Origin: an uncultured Halobacteriales archaeon
GTDB lineage: Archaea > Halobacteriota > Halobacteria > Halobacteriales > Hikarchaeaceae
NCBI GenBank assembly: GCA_964597855.1
Contig: CAZQZO010000001.1
Span: 267,702 to 331,701, forward strand
Direction of reading: 5' to 3'
DNA length: 64,000 bases
Part shown: positions 1,480 through 17,880 of the stretch, in pieces
How positions within the stretch are numbered: position 1 is the first letter of the stretch
Layout: each line of letters starts with the position of its first letter
Made by a program: the position numbers and the translations under genes
Notes under the pieces: generated by a model
Told to the model about the DNA's origin: nothing
Databases searched by the model: none
Seen by the model: the letters and a program-made list of their open reading frames with translations, nothing else

Positions 1480-1553
1480 TGCCGGTTCGCAGATTTGAAC
1501 TACGGACGGCTCGATCTTCAGTCGAGTGCTCTCCCAGGCTGAGCTAAACCGGC
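1480..1553 (-). tRNA. tRNA-Phe (anticodon GAA)
   Basis: The reverse complement GCCGGTTTAGCTCAGCCTGGGAGAGCACTCGACTGAAGATCGAGCCGTCCGTAGTTCAAATCTGCGAACCGGCA folds as a cloverleaf. It has a 7-bp acceptor stem, anticodon loop CTGAAGA and T-loop TTCAAAT. No CCA is encoded. Confidence 0.93.
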
Positions 1554-1810: not shown

Positions 1811-3070
1811 TTATTCAAAAGGCATGCTTTTAAGGATATCACGTTTTTCGATTGCAGTGACTGCCTTGACTAGATCTTCTTGATTTAGAACGGTTCTATC
1901 TTCACTCAAGGCTTCTAGTACGGCTTCTCGTAAAACGAGTCGGATATCACTACCGGAAAGCCCCTCTGTCAAATCTGCGAGAGCAGATGGTTCGAAATTT
2001 TCGATTGCCATGTATTTTGTTGTGACTTCAAATATTTTCTCTCGCATGTTGACGTCTGGAAGGGGAAAATGGATTATGTCGTCGAACCTCCTCCAAGCCG
2101 CAGTGTCAAGTTGATCAGGATGATTTGTAGCCCCGATAAGAAGGACTTCGTCTCGAACGAGACTTATTTCATCTATGCTTTTGAGTAATGTATTTACAGC
2201 ACGTTTTAATGCTGCGTGTTCATCAGATCTTCGGGTTTTTGCGACTGAATCGAACTCATCTACAAATAAAATACAAGGGGATAGACGTTTGGCGACTTCA
2301 AATGTTCGATCGATGTTTTTCGAAGTTTCGCCCAAGTATTGGCTTGTCATCATGGAGAGTTTTACTTCTACAAAAGGTAAACTAAGAGAATGTGCCAAGG
2401 CACGGGCGACAGAAGTTTTTCCAGTTCCAGGAGGGCCTATGAATAATAATTTTCCGACCTCCCTAAGCCCGATTTCGGCTAAATATTCACGGTTTTTTAT
2501 AGCTAAGCGTATTTTTTCAAGTTCATCTGTTTGATTGGTTGTCAATACTAAATCGGGAAGTGTCGTTTCTATTTCTTCTGGTGCTTTTATATCGACTAAA
2601 TCTAGCATTTCTTGATCATCTTCAGTAAAATACTCAGATAGAAGGCTATCTATCCAGAAACGATCTGCTTGGATCGGTCTGTTCGATGTATTAGAGTCCT
2701 CGTAGGAGATATCTAGAGAATCATTTTCTTGAAAGACATATGCTAATGTGGGATTGGTGAGAATGAGATCTGGTGTGGTATTTTTTAAGAACCATTTTTC
2801 TGCAAGATCAAGTTGGGTTAAGCTCATTTCACTACTAAAATTATCTTTTTCGGTGAACATCAAATCGCTAATAGAATCCCACGGGGATTCGACTCCTGTT
2901 GCTTTTTTTGCCATATTTTCATTTACAGACAGTGGGCGTTTTATTTCACCTTTTTTATCAAATGCTTTCCTGATTTGAGGGGGTAAGTCATCAGGGGTCA
3001 AATTTGATAATTTGGTGTAGTGTTTTGCGGTCAGTAATAGCTCAACAATGGCGATGGTGCTATCATTCAT
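1811..3070 (-). CDS. AAA+ ATPase (classic AAA clade, single ATPase module) with an unassigned ~190-aa N-terminal domain
   Basis: Walker A GPPGTGKT, Walker B ILFVDEFD, and second region of homology ATNHPDQLDTAAWRRFD. The longest ORF begins at a TTG (3091); an ATG at 3070 (MNDSTIA...) is the more likely start. Confidence 0.8.
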   Translation of the reverse strand: MNDSTIAIVELLLTAKHYTKLSNLTPDDLPPQIRKAFDKKGEIKRPLSVNENMAKKATGVESPWDSISDLMFTEKDNFSSEMSLTQLDLAEKWFLKNTTPDLILTNPTLAYVFQENDSLDISYEDSNTSNRPIQADRFWIDSLLSEYFTEDDQEMLDLVDIKAPEEIETTLPDLVLTTNQTDELEKIRLAIKNREYLAEIGLREVGKLLFIGPPGTGKTSVARALAHSLSLPFVEVKLSMMTSQYLGETSKNIDRTFEVAKRLSPCILFVDEFDSVAKTRRSDEHAALKRAVNTLLKSIDEISLVRDEVLLIGATNHPDQLDTAAWRRFDDIIHFPLPDVNMREKIFEVTTKYMAIENFEPSALADLTEGLSGSDIRLVLREAVLEALSEDRTVLNQEDLVKAVTAIEKRDILKSMPFE

Positions 3071-3169
3071 TCTCCAGGAAGTAGTATTCAAGGGCTGATA
3101 AGTACATCGAGATTGGCGTAGTAAAAAGGGGAGATGTTTATGTTCAGAGAATCTATTTAAACTAGTGTA

Positions 3170-12319: not shown

Positions 12320-12736
12320 TTAGATATACCCAGGGACTTGGATCACATAGTGCCCATCTTCTTGAATTGCAATAATACATTCATCTCGGTTGTATAGCTC
12401 CATTAAATTAAGTTCGTACTGGCCTGGTTCAAGAATTTTAATACTTTCAAATTGAGTACTCAACTCAACTTGGAGTTTTTCTATATACTCGGGAGTGGGG
12501 GGAGTGGGGGGAGTGGGGGTAGGAGATTCGTAATGATAATTTAAATTTAAATTTTTCGGAGGAGGGGGAGAGTGGTCAGGAGGGGCTTCAATAATTGGTG
12601 ATTTATGGAAGAGTTCTGGGTCGGCCCCAACGGGGATGAATTGAAATTTTTTCCCCCCACAAGCGGTGCATCCAGCTAGCATTTTTTTGGAGCCATCAGA
12701 AAATAGTTCCCCACAACTAGTACATTGGTGTGGCAT
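12320..12736 (-). CDS. oapC: Zn-ribbon protein OapC (origin-associated protein C family)
   Basis: N-terminal CxxC...CxxC zinc ribbon (CTSCG...CTACGG), a Pro/Thr-rich linker (PTPTPPTPPTP) and a conserved C-terminal domain. It is the last gene of the GTPase-DUF2073-Zn-ribbon operon next to orc1. Confidence 0.7.
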   Translation of the reverse strand: MPHQCTSCGELFSDGSKKMLAGCTACGGKKFQFIPVGADPELFHKSPIIEAPPDHSPPPPKNLNLNYHYESPTPTPPTPPTPEYIEKLQVELSTQFESIKILEPGQYELNLMELYNRDECIIAIQEDGHYVIQVPGYI

Positions 12737-13125
12737 TAGCTTTGAGATATGAAAGTTGTTATCAACTTTTCATCTTTATGAAGTGTTTCGATTCGGTTAG
12801 CAGGTCCGATGACAGTTAATTTGGAAGGGGTCCTTCGGCCCATTAACTTATTGATAAATGCAGACCCACTCGGGGTGGAAGGGAGATGTGTTTCAATTTC
12901 AATTCCAGTGAACCCATCAGGATTAATTTCAGACATGGTTACCTCAATAAGTTTGGATTCTTCATCAGGTGAGAGGCCGGTTTCTAGTATAACAATTTTA
13001 TCACTCCGTACACCATCTAAAATCATTCTAATTTTTTCCATTGTGGTTAGTTCATCCATTTTTTGGCTACTAATTAGATCAATTTGTATTCCAGTTTTAT
13101 GTTTTAATTTTTGCATTTTTATCAC
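12736..13125 (-). CDS. oapB: DUF2073-like protein OapB (origin-associated protein B family)
   Basis: A 129-aa ORF that overlaps both neighbours (4 nt and 1 nt). Its position between the Era-like GTPase and the Zn-ribbon protein matches the haloarchaeal oapABC arrangement. Confidence 0.65.
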   Translation of the reverse strand: MIKMQKLKHKTGIQIDLISSQKMDELTTMEKIRMILDGVRSDKIVILETGLSPDEESKLIEVTMSEINPDGFTGIEIETHLPSTPSGSAFINKLMGRRTPSKLTVIGPANRIETLHKDEKLITTFISQS

Positions 13126-13766
13126 CCGAAATAATCTGCTATTTTATCATATACTTCATCCATATTTTCCCCTTCTAATGCAGATAGTGGTACGGTTTTG
13201 TGTTGGGGGAAGGATTGTTCAATTAAAGTTGGATCTGACTTCTTCAGATCGATTTTATTAGCAAAAATTAGAACGGGTAGTTTCCTACTTTCTATAATAC
13301 CGATCAACATTGTGTTGACTTGGGTGAATGGGTCTTGTGTGGAATCTAACACATAAATTACACCATCAATATCTTCACGCAACCAATGCATGGCTTCTGC
13401 GACCCCTTCTGTAGCTTCGCGGGATCGACGTATCGCGTCTTTCTTAGACATTCCAAAATCAAGAAATTCACGATAATCAATTTTAGTGGTTACACCTGGG
13501 GTGTCTACAATATCAATAGTGACAATTTTACCATCCCGCTCGATTTCTATATTTTCTTTTCTTCTGGCCCTGCGCGTCTCGTGGGGAACTTTGCTTTCTG
13601 TTCCAACAATATCACCAGTCCAGTCTCGTGCTATACGATTTGCGAGTGTTGTTTTTCCTGCATTTGGTGGACCATAAATTCCAATACGTTTTGGTTTGGA
13701 CCCAGAAAAAAGTTTATCAGTAGCTCGCGAAATGCTATCTCTAAGTTGTTTTAGTAAACCCATCAT
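13122..13766 (-). CDS. oapA: Era-like small GTPase OapA (origin-associated protein A family)
   Basis: G1 GPPNAGKT, G3 DTPG and G4 NKID motifs. It is transcribed divergently from orc1 across the origin. Confidence 0.8.
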   Translation of the reverse strand: MMGLLKQLRDSISRATDKLFSGSKPKRIGIYGPPNAGKTTLANRIARDWTGDIVGTESKVPHETRRARRKENIEIERDGKIVTIDIVDTPGVTTKIDYREFLDFGMSKKDAIRRSREATEGVAEAMHWLREDIDGVIYVLDSTQDPFTQVNTMLIGIIESRKLPVLIFANKIDLKKSDPTLIEQSFPQHKTVPLSALEGENMDEVYDKIADYFG

Positions 13767-13898
13767 TTACATTGCCTCACAGATGAAACCAAATTATACT
13801 ATATTTGGCATCTTCTCATCTATGACATAAATCCTATGCCTAATCACTTAAACTTATGTCAGACGTTTGTCTGCCCTATAAATAATATCTTACAGGTA

Positions 13899-13918
13899 CC
13901 CCCCCATTTCCAGTGGAG
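13899..13918 (+). promoter_or_regulatory. ORB element (C-string orientation)
   Basis: CCCCCCCATTTCCAGTGGAG. The reverse complement CTCCACTGGAAATGGGGGGG fits the archaeal ORB core plus a G-string. Confidence 0.8.
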
Positions 13919-14100
13919 TTTTTATATTCATTATTTTCGTTGGAATTAACATTAAATATGTTTTATTTCACATTATTTTCAGATGGTTTTAAGTATTAAT
14001 TTCACATTATTTTCGGTGAAATTTTTATCTTTTATAGGGATGAATCGTTATAAATATTTCTCTTTAAAAAACCTGTAATAAAAAAATATATTTTATTAAT
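13919..14100. other. AT-rich putative duplex unwinding element
   Basis: Hand count gives about 32 G/C in about 182 nt (roughly 18% G+C). The element is bracketed by inverted ORBs. Confidence 0.7.
13927..14020 (+). repeat. Three related direct repeats (mini-ORB-like) inside the AT-rich core
   Basis: TTCATTATTTTCGTTGGAATT (13927-13947), TTTCACATTATTTTCAGATGG (13966-13986) and TTTCACATTATTTTCGGTGAA (14000-14020). The last two are 34 bp apart. Confidence 0.7.
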
Positions 14101-14130
14101 AATTCCACTTGAAACAAAGGGGGGTGGGGG
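14101..14130 (+). promoter_or_regulatory. ORB element with G-string (inverted relative to 13899-13918)
   Basis: AATTCCACTTGAAACAAAGGGGGGTGGGGG matches the haloarchaeal-type ORB pattern TCCACnnGAAAC...GGGGG. Confidence 0.85.
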
Positions 14131-14133
14131 ATC

Positions 14134-14148
14134 ATTTCCATTGGAATC
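14134..14148 (+). promoter_or_regulatory. Mini-ORB-like element
   Basis: ATTTCCATTGGAATC lies immediately after the G-string ORB. Its core is the same as ATTTCCAGTGGAG at 13906. Confidence 0.6.
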
Positions 14149-14202
14149 TGAAAAAAACAACTATTATAAAAAAACAACATATGTAGTTTGGTTGTGTGTT
14201 TT

Positions 14203-14238
14203 TTATATATTTTTACATTTTTATATATTTTTACATTT
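14203..14238. repeat. Perfect 18-bp tandem duplication (TTATATATTTTTACATTT x2)
   Basis: Read directly from the sequence. It is the source of the KNVKIYKNVKIYK repeat in the spurious minus-strand ORF 14064..14339. Confidence 0.9.
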
Positions 14239-14267
14239 TTTAATAAATATTTTTTAGAGAAACCTTT

Positions 14268-14282
14268 ATTTCTATTGGAAAT
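14268..14282 (+). promoter_or_regulatory. Mini-ORB-like element abutting the longest-ORF start of orc1
   Basis: ATTTCTATTGGAAAT has the same core as the elements at 13906 and 14134. Confidence 0.55.
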
Positions 14283-14323
14283 ATATGAAGACATTACTAG
14301 AAATTTATAAAAATGGGGCAAAA

Positions 14324-15790
14324 ATGATGGACAATACACAAAAAAACAATACCCAATATATTTCCAACCAAAATTTAAATACCTCCACTCCTGGTGGTTT
14401 GTTTGAAAATTTACTTAGTGTTGAACCAATTTTTAACAATAAAGAACTACTAAGACATTCTTTTACACCTGAAATTCTACCCCACCGCGATACCCAAATT
14501 CAAACTTTGGCTAGTATTCTTGTACCAGCACTTCGTGGGGACACTCCCTCAAATATCCTTATTTATGGGAAAACAGGAACTGGTAAAACTGCAAGTGTCA
14601 ATTTTGTAACTCGTGAGTTGGAACAAACTTCCACCAATTATGAAACTCCATGTGATGTTAAATTTATTAACTGTGAAGTTGTTGATACAAAATACCGAGT
14701 TTTAGCAGAATTAGCTAATAATTTTATAGATAAAAATAAAGAATATGTACTTAACCAAATTATTCAACTTGAAACTTCATTAGCCAATTGGAGCGTTCAA
14801 GGTAGAGGTGATTCTCTGGATTTATCCTCCTTCGACAACCGGGCGGTTCTCCAGGATAAAATTACCCAACTTAACCAAGACCTCGATTCCTTCACAAATG
14901 TACCCATGACCGGGTGGCCAACTGATACTGTATACTCAACTTTAATCAAAGCAATTGATTATCGCGAGCGTGTTGTTGTAATCGTCCTTGATGAAATAGA
15001 CAAACTTGTAGAAAAAAGTGGAGATAATATTCTCTATAATCTCTCTCGGATGAATTCCGATCTAAACCAATCCCGAGTGTCTATTAAAGGAATTTCAAAC
15101 GATCTAACTTTCACAGAGGATCTAGACCCCCGTGTCAAATCTTCATTAGGTGAAGAAGAAATAATCTTCCCTCCTTATAATGCCCATCAATTGAATGATA
15201 TACTTGAAAATCGTGCTACAGAGGCATTTAAAGAAGGTGTTCTATCTGAAGGTGTGATCAGATTGTGCTCCGGGTTCGCCGCAAAAGAACATGGGGATGC
15301 ACGACGCGCTTTGGATTTACTAAGAACTGCCGGTGAACTCGCAGAGCGCGCGGGTTCTGCTACTGTGACTACTGATCATGTTCGAGCAGCACAACAAAAA
15401 ATAGAACTCGACCGCGTTGTCGAAACTATTCGAACTTTACCAGACCAATCTAAATTAGTACTTCGCGCAATCCTTACTTTAACCCAAAATGATATTTCCC
15501 ACATCACCACTGGAGAAGTATACAAACAATATCGCCAACTTTGTAAACAAAGATCTGATTCTATACTCACCCACCGGAGAGTCACCGATCTGATTTCAGA
15601 ATTAGATATGTTGGGAATTGTCAACGCGGTAGTTGTAAGTAAAGGTCGATATGGGCGAACCAAACAAATCGCCCTCTCCGTCGACCCAAAACATGTTGAG
15701 AATGTATTATCTGCAGATAAACATTTATTCGAGGGCTCAGAAGACATACCCATCGAATATCAAAGCCAATTTAAACCTTATTTTAAATAA
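14324..15790 (+). CDS. orc1: Orc1/Cdc6 replication initiator (origin-adjacent copy)
   Basis: Walker A GKTGTGKT, Walker B VVIVLDEID and a C-terminal winged-helix region. The longest ORF starts at 14285, but that ATG sits on a mini-ORB, so the MMDNTQ start at 14324/14327 is preferred. The start is uncertain. Confidence 0.9.
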   Translation: MMDNTQKNNTQYISNQNLNTSTPGGLFENLLSVEPIFNNKELLRHSFTPEILPHRDTQIQTLASILVPALRGDTPSNILIYGKTGTGKTASVNFVTRELEQTSTNYETPCDVKFINCEVVDTKYRVLAELANNFIDKNKEYVLNQIIQLETSLANWSVQGRGDSLDLSSFDNRAVLQDKITQLNQDLDSFTNVPMTGWPTDTVYSTLIKAIDYRERVVVIVLDEIDKLVEKSGDNILYNLSRMNSDLNQSRVSIKGISNDLTFTEDLDPRVKSSLGEEEIIFPPYNAHQLNDILENRATEAFKEGVLSEGVIRLCSGFAAKEHGDARRALDLLRTAGELAERAGSATVTTDHVRAAQQKIELDRVVETIRTLPDQSKLVLRAILTLTQNDISHITTGEVYKQYRQLCKQRSDSILTHRRVTDLISELDMLGIVNAVVVSKGRYGRTKQIALSVDPKHVENVLSADKHLFEGSEDIPIEYQSQFKPYFK

Positions 15791-16382
15791 AATTCCCTAC
15801 AATTTCATTAAAAATTAATTTAATATATCCTATCCACGGTATTCGGGCTTCTGCAGTCCCTTTCACCCATGAAGGTTTAACCGGTCCACTAATCCCCTGA
15901 GATTGGTCGTAGACTTCATTCCCATCCCCCTTCGTGATGTAACCACTATGGGGCGCAGGACAGTTTAACATTGACCCACAATTTTTTCCCACAACCCAAT
16001 TTGGATCTCCCCTATCATACCAATCTTCACCACCTTCCACCCAAAATTCCGCTCTATGTATCACCCCATTATTTGGATTTCCATCCACACCAAAAACAAT
16101 AACATCCCCCTTTCCCCCAAATTTATAATATTCTCCTACCTCATCTCCTGTCACAACACCCCCACTCCGATCATTACTCATAATAAAAACCAAATCCCCT
16201 TGATGTAGATTTGGTTCCATACTCTCACTCTCTATGGCTACTAACGGCGGCCAAACTCCACTAATCCCAAATAAAATCCCTCCGATCAGTAAAATAAAAA
16301 ATAAATCTTTTAAAATTATTCTACCAATCCCTCCTTCTTCAAAAATTTCTGTTATATATCTAATCATCCCTCCAATCTCCAT
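15783..16382 (-). CDS. Signal peptidase I, archaeal Sec11 type (S26B)
   Basis: An N-terminal TM helix followed by the catalytic Ser box ESESMEPNLHQGDLVF and the downstream His box (VIHRA). It converges on orc1 with an 8-nt overlap. Confidence 0.8.
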   Translation of the reverse strand: MEIGGMIRYITEIFEEGGIGRIILKDLFFILLIGGILFGISGVWPPLVAIESESMEPNLHQGDLVFIMSNDRSGGVVTGDEVGEYYKFGGKGDVIVFGVDGNPNNGVIHRAEFWVEGGEDWYDRGDPNWVVGKNCGSMLNCPAPHSGYITKGDGNEVYDQSQGISGPVKPSWVKGTAEARIPWIGYIKLIFNEIVGNFI

Positions 16383-16470
16383 TTTCTACTCTATTATACT
16401 TCTAACTACCTCTACATCAACCTTTCCGGGCCGCTACATTTTTATCTTCCCCCCCGTTCTCTCCCTCCAC

Positions 16471-17880
16471 GTGCCGCCAAACGAACTTTCTAATGTTATC
16501 CAAGAGTTGGTAAAACATGGGTACAATGCCGAACCTAAAGTGGTGCAATTTATCAATAACACCCCCGATCCCCATTCTACAATCCAATTTTTAATTTCCA
16601 ACACCCCTGAGGGAACTTTCACCCTCACCATGTCTCATATATCCAATATTTACGACAAGCCCACTCCCCCTCCCCACTCCCTCCCTTCTATATCTATATT
16701 AAATGATATGACTGGAAACAGTACTGGTTCTGGAACCTATGACGATTTCGTCTCCATTTTTCAAGACAGACTATCTAAACTTTCAGCCATTCTATCCAAC
16801 CGAATAAAACCACATCCCCTCAATTCTCTTGGAAAAAATTCTGGTGAAATTGGAGTTGTAGGGATGGTTTCTGACATCCAAAAAACAAATTCCAACCACA
16901 TTTTACTCGAACTGGAAGACACTACCGGGACATTTTCAATATTGGTAAATAATAATAGTGAAATTTTCCATTTAGCAGATGAGATACTCTTAGATGAAGT
17001 GATCGGCGTTAAAGGAAAACTCTCCCCCGATTCTGAGATTCTGTTTGCGGAGATAATTTATTTCCCCGATGTTCCCCCCAATTTCCGCCCACCCCGTGCT
17101 GATAGATCTGTCCAAGCAGCATTGTTGAGTGACATACATGTCGGATCTAAACATTTCACATCTGAAATTTGGTCTGATTTCACACATTGGCTCAAAACCC
17201 CCGAAGCAGAACTTATTGAATATCTCTTAATCGCGGGAGATTTGGTTGAAGGTGTTGGGGTTTACCCTGGACAAGACACAGACCTTGCGATCATTAACAT
17301 ATACAAACAATATGAGGCGTTTACTGAATGTTTAAAAGAAATCCCTGGAGACATTTCTATTATTATGATCCCTGGAAACCACGACGCTGTTAGGCTAGCA
17401 GAACCCCAACCCGGATTTGATTCTGAAATTAGAAATTTACTCTCTTCTTCCAATACTCACCTCACATCAAATCCCTCAACTGTGGTTGTAGAAAAGGTCC
17501 CCATTCTAATGTATCATGGAGTATCTTTAGATGAAATAATCGCAGAAACATCTTCTACCCAGGTTAGTTATGAAGCCCCTCAAAATGCCATGATCCAACT
17601 CCTTAAAAAACGCCATTTGGCCCCCCAATTTGGATCAAGAACTAGAATTTCCCCCGAGGAAAAAGATTATCTAGTCATTGATCAAGTCCCCTCCGTTTTT
17701 CACTCCGGGCATGTTCATAAATTTGGCTGTGGGAAATATCGTAATGTGTTGGTTGTTAATTCCGGCTGCTGGCAATCCCAAACCGATTTTCAAAAACGTG
17801 CTAATATCACCCCCGATGTTGGGTATGCGCCCATCTTAGATTTGGATACGTTGGATCTAACCATTCGAAAATTCTCTTAA
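16471..17880 (+). CDS. polD1: DNA polymerase II (PolD) small subunit DP1
   Basis: Calcineurin-like phosphoesterase motifs (LSDIHVGS, GDLVEGVG, GNHDAVR, GHVH) and an OB-fold region. The conserved N-terminus begins at in-frame GTG 16471 (VPPNELSNVIQELVKHGY). The longest ORF (16234) would overlap the Sec11 gene by about 150 nt. A TATA-like ATTTTTAT sits at 16438-16445, about 26 nt upstream. Confidence 0.88.
   Translation: MPPNELSNVIQELVKHGYNAEPKVVQFINNTPDPHSTIQFLISNTPEGTFTLTMSHISNIYDKPTPPPHSLPSISILNDMTGNSTGSGTYDDFVSIFQDRLSKLSAILSNRIKPHPLNSLGKNSGEIGVVGMVSDIQKTNSNHILLELEDTTGTFSILVNNNSEIFHLADEILLDEVIGVKGKLSPDSEILFAEIIYFPDVPPNFRPPRADRSVQAALLSDIHVGSKHFTSEIWSDFTHWLKTPEAELIEYLLIAGDLVEGVGVYPGQDTDLAIINIYKQYEAFTECLKEIPGDISIIMIPGNHDAVRLAEPQPGFDSEIRNLLSSSNTHLTSNPSTVVVEKVPILMYHGVSLDEIIAETSSTQVSYEAPQNAMIQLLKKRHLAPQFGSRTRISPEEKDYLVIDQVPSVFHSGHVHKFGCGKYRNVLVVNSGCWQSQTDFQKRANITPDVGYAPILDLDTLDLTIRKFS

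Follow-up and report, generated by a model that had tools for sequence, protein, structure and literature searches.

The 64-kb stretch of DNA analysed here (the window, part of contig CAZQZO010000001.1 from an uncultured archaeon) carries, between the genes oapA and orc1, an intergenic gap of 557 nucleotides (nt; positions 13767-14323, or 13767-14326 with the conserved orc1 start) that very probably serves as the oriC1-type chromosomal replication origin of a marine haloarchaeal relative with a low guanine plus cytosine (G+C) content. A preliminary description of the same DNA had taken the gap for a replication origin, and that reading is borne out: initiator-type motifs, their conservation, the surrounding gene order and a switch in strand composition all fall at the gap, the motifs are statistically unique in the window, and the adjoining gene encodes a homologue of known initiators. 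The sequence features listed in that description all lie at the coordinates it gave. The element is of a well-known type, an oriC1 orthologue, in a lineage for which it has no earlier description.

Candidate initiator sites of the kind known as origin recognition boxes (ORBs) and mini-ORBs were scored with a position weight matrix (PWM) of 16 nt, built from sixteen sites of four other genomes only, thereby avoiding circularity, and applied to 127,970 positions in the window. The four highest-ranking matches, at 20-23 bits, are in order 13905-13920 (-), 14133-14148 (-), 14267-14282 (-) and 14101-14116 (+), and the best match outside the gap reaches 15.7 bits. The origin comprises the following features, given with the adjoining initiator gene.

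13899-13920, minus strand: ORB-L, a mini-ORB dyad with a G-string (G7) pointing away from the AT-rich core; PWM rank 1, 22.7 bits.
13919-14100, no strand: AT-rich core between the inverted ORBs, the proposed primary unwinding element; 182 nt, 17.6% G+C.
13932-13947, minus strand: degenerate mini-ORB within the core; 15.3 bits, rank 6 of 127,970, weakly conserved in relatives.
13962-14023, plus strand: two core repeats TTWATTTCACATTATTTTC, 34 bp apart, the copies 95% identical.
14101-14130, plus strand: ORB-R, a mini-ORB dyad with an AAA spacer, a G-string and an extended G-string; 20.2 bits.
14133-14148, minus strand: mini-ORB that begins 3 nt beyond the ORB-R G-string and abuts it; rank 2, 21.9 bits.
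14149-14266, no strand: second AT-rich tract of low stability and low G+C, an alternative or auxiliary unwinding region or the orc1 upstream region.
14267-14282, minus strand: orc1-proximal mini-ORB, with the conserved start codon 45 nt downstream; rank 3, 20.5 bits.
14327-15790, plus strand: orc1/cdc6 initiator gene (Pfam Cdc6_C 8e-32, Cdc6_lid 7e-29), whose longest open reading frame (ORF) starts at 14285.

The ORB pair reported earlier at 13899-13918 and 14101-14130 was confirmed, and its sequences match as given. ORB-L reads CCCCCCC-ATTTCCAGTGGAG at 13899-13918, or CTCCACTGGAAAT-GGGGGGG on the minus strand, and ORB-R reads AATTCCACTTGAAACAAAGGGGGGTGGGGG at 14101-14130, which resolves into AATTCCACTTGAAAC-AAA-GGGGGGTGGGGG. 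The two are inverted relative to each other, and both G-strings are directed outward from the intervening DNA. In each case the G-string lies at the dyad-distal end of the ORB (G7 on ORB-L, GGGGGG on ORB-R) after a spacer of 0-3 nt. The further mini-ORB-like sites proposed at 14134-14148 and 14268-14282 were recovered by a consensus search and again as the second and third PWM matches. With at most one mismatch, TTCCANTGGAAA has eight matches in 64 kb where 3.5 are expected, and six of the eight, corresponding to four sites, are packed into the 375 nt between 13907 and 14281.

These elements are also retained among relatives. The gap was aligned with those of four syntenic loci (L002, L006, L008 and L010) from Tara Oceans and other marine metagenome assemblies, which have 37-40% G+C and Orc1 proteins 68-76% identical. 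The two ORBs, the mini-ORB next after ORB-R and the one close to orc1 are conserved in all of them in position, orientation and spacing; much of the remaining intergenic DNA is variable and carries indels. The preliminary description had made its call depend on the repeats persisting in syntenic regions of related genomes, and the ORBs and mini-ORBs do persist there. The distance from ORB-R to the next mini-ORB is 32 bp, core to core, in all five marine genomes, each of which also carries a bipartite (extended) G-string on ORB-R of the form GGGGGTGGGGG or a close variant. ORB-L follows the pattern TTCCAnnGGAAAy-nAA-GGGG in the relatives, with GGGG then T(A/G) in all four, and in the window the 3-nt spacer is replaced by G, giving a single run of G7. 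The orc1-proximal mini-ORB is embedded in a block that is invariant across the five genomes, GAAACCTTTATTTCnAnTGGA, beside an A/T-rich, TATA-like sequence. A more distant locus (L001, Orc1 identity 52%), the only one returned by a contig scan with Orc1, is of little comparative use: its neighbours differ, it shows no clear skew switch, and its single ORB-like site ends in a simple GGGGG.

The strongest independent evidence for the origin is the switch in strand composition. At third codon positions, GC skew on the plus strand runs from +0.11 to +0.58 in all 11 genes between 1.8 and 13.8 kb, oapA and oapB beside the origin having just +0.11 to +0.14, and from -0.04 to -0.67 in all 40 genes between 14.3 and 64 kb. 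Gene orientation is irrelevant to this pattern, the mean values being +0.34 (left) and -0.38 (right) for plus-strand genes and +0.29 and -0.40 for minus-strand genes. Bins of 1 kb on the two sides differ accordingly (Mann-Whitney p = 5e-8). The skew inflection that the preliminary description had proposed to look for is therefore present as a change of sign at the gap, where the cumulative skew reaches a maximum, not a minimum. The same gap holds the switch in L002, L006, L008 and L010, and a weaker one of the same sign is seen in Haloplanus natans; positive skew extends a further 10 kb to the left on the source contig (L012). Overall skew in the marine loci (window, L012 1-9831, L002, L006, L008 and L010) is about 0.16-0.20, with about 0.3-0.4 at third positions, compared with about 0.08 overall in Haloplanus. 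The AT skew has no switch at the origin. An inverted polarity of this kind, in which the leading strand is C-rich and the cumulative skew peaks at the origin, was described by Norais et al. for four haloarchaea, including Haloquadratum at 48% G+C (PMC1868953).

Several other compositional features were observed along the same stretch. Runs of at least six G are almost confined to the left of the origin and runs of at least six C to the right. A gene for a solute-binding protein (170-1405) has a third-position skew of -0.31 inside the positive-skew replichore and is an isolated outlier near tRNA-Phe (1480-1553, minus strand); its upstream paralogue has a skew near zero (0.06), the observation extending over L012 8445-11236. 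A second skew switch near 1.5 kb, which would have implied an inverted 12-kb block or near-unidirectional replication, was considered and rejected, as positive skew continues in L012. Three independent metagenome contigs (L013, L014 and L015) end within about 30 nt past the solute-binding-protein gene, just before tRNA-Phe, which suggests that the tRNA-Phe site is a strain-variable junction or the site of a recent insertion or inversion. About 10 kb to the left of the window (L012 1-1449), a 669-aa product combines Phage_integrase and argininosuccinate-lyase domains and may be a fusion or a gene-calling artefact.

The gene that directly adjoins the gap encodes a protein assigned to the conserved Orc1-1 clade associated with oriC1. 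It is 63-67% identical to Orc1 of cultivated Halobacteriales, and its best solved relatives are Orc1-1 of S. solfataricus (2qby_A, 2e-105) and ORC1 of A. pernix (2v1u, 9e-99), both of which were crystallised on ORB DNA. The preliminary description had favoured a downstream start for orc1, at 14324 or 14327, over the longest reading frame, and the comparison agrees. The ATGGAC at 14327 aligns in the four relatives that span it and has a GAGG/GGGG Shine-Dalgarno-like motif 6-9 nt upstream, and the ATG at 14285 is without counterpart in L006 and L008; position 14324 is likewise an ATG in the window. The start of orc1 is corrected accordingly, to a product of 487 aa, with respect to the database entry P0001 (501 aa), which uses the long 14285 start. 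In bacteria, initiator sites within the initiator's own promoter, such as DnaA boxes in the dnaA promoter, suggest autoregulation (PMC3936714). A reasonable expectation for the gap is that Orc1 would act through the orc1-proximal mini-ORB to repress its own promoter.

Turning to the DNA between the ORBs, the earlier hand count of 182 nt with about 32 G or C is exact (32 G+C, 17.6%). No other 182-nt window in the 64 kb has a lower G+C content; the value is tied with that of 14131-14312, and 0.014% of windows are equally low. Nearest-neighbour stability over 100-bp windows averages -130 kcal/mol (standard deviation 6.6) in the 64 kb, and the two least stable regions are 14199-14298 (-100 kcal/mol) followed by 14005-14104 (-105 kcal/mol). 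Repeats are also present in the core, with 95% identity between 13962-13980 and 13996-14014 and 89% between 13929-13947 and 14005-14023. The second TTWATTTCACATTATTTTC copy forms an inverted repeat, ATTTCAC-N10-GTGAAAT (14000-14023), the arms of which (TTTCA...TGAAA) are retained in L002, L006 and L008 and not clearly in L010. The preliminary description had proposed an array of three mini-ORB repeats here. The repeats themselves are real, yet only one or two of the three qualify as mini-ORBs, since 13932-13947 scores well, 14008-14023 is marginal (10.3 bits, rank 25) and 13966-13986 obtains no PWM score. The perfect 18-bp tandem duplication noted beyond ORB-R was recovered by Tandem Repeats Finder (14200-14240, period 18, 2.3 copies, 100% match). 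It is not conserved in the relatives, and the second AT-rich tract in which it lies is variable and contains indels.

A model for initiation at the gap can be assembled from the crystallised Orc1-ORB complexes and from what is known of haloarchaeal oriC1. The adjacent Orc1/Cdc6 would bind ORB-L and ORB-R in opposite orientations, its winged helix contacting the TTCCAnTGGAAA dyad and its AAA+ domain the G-string. Additional Orc1 could occupy the mini-ORBs at 14133-14148 and 14267-14282 and, more weakly, sites inside the core. Orc1 would deform the DNA, and the sequence of 17.6% G+C between or beside the sites would melt. MCM would then be loaded, and forks would depart in both directions. The Orc1 binding, melting, helicase loading and bidirectional firing in this model are inferred by analogy to those systems, and the unwinding site and the autoregulation of orc1 are inferences as well.

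Several observations weigh against this reading of the gap or of its parts. Stability is lowest in the second AT-rich tract (14199-14298), a stretch that no inverted pair of full ORBs encloses, and ORB-L has no extended G-string, an element that Haloarcula hispanica requires on each side. The raw cumulative G-C maximum is inexact: the oap genes on the minus strand shift it to 12890, about 1 kb to the left of the ORBs. Under bacterial skew polarity the switch would be a terminus, and so the call of an origin leans on the published haloarchaeal polarity and on the context of orc1 and the ORBs. Finally, the sequence covered amounts to 74 kb of a contig of 322,723 bp, and further origins may be present elsewhere.

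The first of these points leads to the alternative that has most in its favor, namely that the origin is real but that unwinding first occurs in the second AT-rich tract (14149-14266), between its two mini-ORBs. That tract holds the least stable 100-bp window (-100 compared with -105 kcal/mol for the core), its G+C content is an equal 17.6%, and the two mini-ORBs that flank it are conserved and score highly. It is nevertheless poorly conserved and rich in indels, with a tandem duplication unique to this genome, whereas the core carries conserved internal elements. The sites on either side of the tract do not form an inverted pair of full ORBs, and H. hispanica has a minimal oriC1 delimited by its two inverted G-string ORBs (PMC3936714). 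First unwinding in the second tract is therefore possible but rather unlikely, and less likely than in the ORB-bracketed core.

Very improbable, by comparison, is the idea that the gap is a replication terminus or a dormant or relic origin, with the skew switch marking a meeting point of forks and the ORBs being inactive remnants. The bacterial convention does read a cumulative GC-skew maximum as a terminus, and dormant origins adjacent to orc1 are known in Haloferax mediterranei (PMC4595724). The mapped haloarchaeal origins, however, have inverted polarity (PMC1868953), and oriC1 of Haloplanus has the same sign. The ORBs, their spacing and the core are under clear purifying selection even though the Orc1 proteins are just 68-76% identical, and only a coincidence without explanation would put a terminus precisely between inverted ORBs next to orc1 in each of five genomes. 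The weakest alternative, which we regard as slightly less credible still, treats the gap as a divergent promoter and operator region only, in which TTCCAnTGGAA palindromes are operators for a transcription factor or for Orc1 repressing orc1 and oapABC while replication starts elsewhere; both promoters do lie in the gap, its left 110 nt are the conserved oapA promoter and leader, the 14267-14282 site is just upstream of orc1 and palindromes are typical of operators, but the asymmetric, ORB-specific G-string, the match to functionally tested oriC1 ORBs, the strand-composition switch here in five genomes and an AT-rich core far beyond the needs of a promoter all speak against it.

The reading of the gap as an oriC1-type origin gains further context from cultivated haloarchaea. 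In H. hispanica, autonomous replication of oriC1 depends on both inverted ORBs and on both of their extended G-strings, and an inner G-rich inverted repeat acts as an enhancer (PMC3936714). As at oriC1-cdc6A of H. hispanica and oriC1 of Haloferax volcanii, a conserved orc1 lies on one side and oapABC on the other, inverted ORBs with outward G-strings enclose an AT-rich core of about 180 nt, an extra ORB is found just upstream of orc1, and the leading strand is C-rich. ORB-R is nearly a Halo-ORB, with the dyad, a 3-nt spacer and GGGG-T-GGGGG. The loci of Haloplanus natans (L016) and Halocatena (L017) have the same gene neighbourhood, and their oriC1 cores are flanked by two inverted ORBs of the form GTTCCACCCGAAAC-GAA-GGGGTGGGGGGG, 177 and 274 nt apart, which ORB-R matches. 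The core of 182 nt is comparable to that of Haloplanus; the Halocatena core is longer. An ORB is likewise located 18-22 nt upstream of orc1 in these cultivated haloarchaea (L016 9972-9983, L017 9969-9980).

The differences are equally specific. The genome here is of marine, not hypersaline, provenance, and its G+C content is 40% instead of the 56-68% of the haloarchaeal comparison. The extended G-string is restricted to the ORB on the orc1 side, but occurs on both ORBs in Haloplanus and Halocatena. An inner G-rich inverted repeat is missing from the gap, the core being AT-rich right up to both ORBs, whereas the two cultivated loci show C/G-rich blocks inside their ORBs. Further distinguishing features are the AT-rich repeats of the core, a skew far stronger than in Haloplanus, and a clade-specific inverted mini-ORB situated 3 nt past the G-string, with none at that position in the Haloplanus and Halocatena loci. 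The earlier claim that the gap reproduces the oriC1 architecture of cultivated haloarchaea thus stands for the neighbourhood and the inverted G-string ORBs, but not for the extended G-string, found on one ORB, nor for the absent inner repeat.

More distant origins share fewer features. Like oriC1 of Saccharolobus (Sulfolobus) solfataricus and oriC of Pyrococcus abyssi, the locus combines ORBs made of a dyad and a short G-string with an Orc1-1-type initiator, and, next to its initiator gene, surrounds an AT-rich element with both full ORBs and mini-ORBs (PMC1868953, PMC3528665). Those origins differ in their neighbouring genes and have no extended G-string, and Pyrococcus has the bacterial skew polarity, unlike the locus here (PMC1868953). 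Bacterial oriC with its DnaA boxes is similar in having clustered initiator sites and an AT-rich unwinding element beside the initiator gene, but its initiator is DnaA rather than Orc1/Cdc6, its motifs are unrelated, and its GC-skew polarity is opposite.

The flanks of the origin contain the following features.

12320-12736, minus strand: oapC (Pfam OapC 1.4e-26).
12736-13125, minus strand: oapB (Pfam OapB 8.1e-38).
13122-13766, minus strand: oapA/arvA, a small GTPase (Pfam MMR_HSR1 9e-14).
13767-13875, minus strand: conserved oapA upstream region, nearly invariant in five genomes.
15783-16382, minus strand: S26-like peptidase (Pfam), a right-hand synteny marker.
Within 16234-17880, plus strand: DNA polymerase D small subunit (Pfam), a right-hand synteny marker.

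The flanks of oapABC and orc1 named in the preliminary description were confirmed by Pfam as OapC, OapB, the small GTPase OapA and Orc1/Cdc6. The oapCBA operon marks the left side of the haloarchaeal oriC1. OapA is the vesiculation GTPase ArvA, for which no role in replication has been demonstrated (PMC10927574), and the operon is for that reason a synteny marker of oriC1 and not functional evidence. The order of oapCBA, orc1 and peptidase is common to L002-L011, Haloplanus and Halocatena, and the polymerase D small subunit comes next in all of these loci except that of Halocatena. At 548 aa, the longest ORF for this subunit exceeds the orthologues of the relatives (465-483 aa) by 65-83 aa and shares about 150 nt with the peptidase gene on the minus strand; its true start probably lies further downstream. 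In Halocatena, oapA/arvA (L017 7814-9010) is 398 aa long and contains an intein (Pfam Intein_splicing), compared with about 213 aa elsewhere.

The region upstream of oapA has a TATA-like TTTAAG (CTTAAA on the plus strand, 13848-13853) and a GTCAGAC-N3-TGTCTG motif (13858-13873). A CTTAAG box followed by GTCAGAC is conserved upstream of oapA in Haloplanus and Halocatena. The more general GTCAGAC-N3-TGTCWG also occurs at 25-40, upstream of the solute-binding-protein gene (three matches in all, 0.08 expected), and may be a shared promoter or regulator site. The presumed 5' leader of oapA/arvA (13770-13834, minus strand) can form a conserved stem-loop in which CCAAAT...ATTTGG make up the inner stem and AGATG...CATCT the outer one. 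Its 23 predicted pairs across five genomes include two with compensatory changes, and the hairpin ends beside a GAGG Shine-Dalgarno-like motif; it has no Rfam match. More generally, Rfam gave no match to a non-coding RNA over 13000-15000 at E values up to 1. A scan for bacterial-type promoters and terminators was uninformative (7 promoter-like sites, 5.8 expected) and is unsuited to archaea. Short ORFs called or listed within the gap (L002 9783-9986 and the same in L003-L005; L006 3834-3944; window 14064-14339 on the minus strand), some of which cross ORB-R, are probably spurious, because their frame is not kept among relatives owing to indels.

As to the host, the lineage is probably Marine Group IV, or Hikarchaeia, an assignment drawn from the marine provenance and the G+C content of the window and its relatives, which match the published description. 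The Hikarchaeia are described as marine, with a genome of about 1.2 Mb and about 41% G+C, and as sister to the Haloarchaea (PMC7599335). The window has 40.5% G+C, and the same sequence is also present as copies in marine metagenome assemblies. Identical proteins put it on contig JBJKYP010000007.1 (322,723 bp, GCA_045560985.1), where its first position is 78,903; the protein of 1811-3091 had no identical database record, probably owing to a different ORF start. The median isoelectric point over the 52 long ORFs of the window is 5.3, compared with 4.6 for the Halocatena locus; naive ORF calls are unreliable in the Haloplanus locus (67% G+C), so its acidity figure was not used. The genome description of the Hikarchaeia is silent on replication (PMC7599335), and a literature search found no paper linking this group with replication origins.

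Binding of Orc1 to DNA at high intracellular salt has been put forward as the role of the extended G-string (PMC3936714; PMC1868953), and the presence of this element in organisms of ordinary seawater is a test of that salt-adaptation proposal. Both the extended G-string and the inverted skew, which have been treated in discussion as traits of halophiles, may reflect a replication machinery common to Haloarchaea and Marine Group IV rather than high intracellular salt or high G+C, because both traits occur, the skew being much stronger, in an open-ocean sister lineage (probably Hikarchaeia) of 40% G+C and only mild acidity. In the same proposal, the one-sided extended G-string and the mini-ORB at 32 bp would together constitute a distinct, asymmetric Orc1 assembly; the chances for and against this interpretation as a whole appear evenly balanced. 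With its strong, inverted and orientation-independent skew, the clade offers a clean natural system for exploring what makes the leading strand C-rich in this archaeal branch. With the gap very probably serving as oriC1, the origin, and hence the layout of the replichores, would be fixed for an abundant and uncultured lineage of marine archaea.

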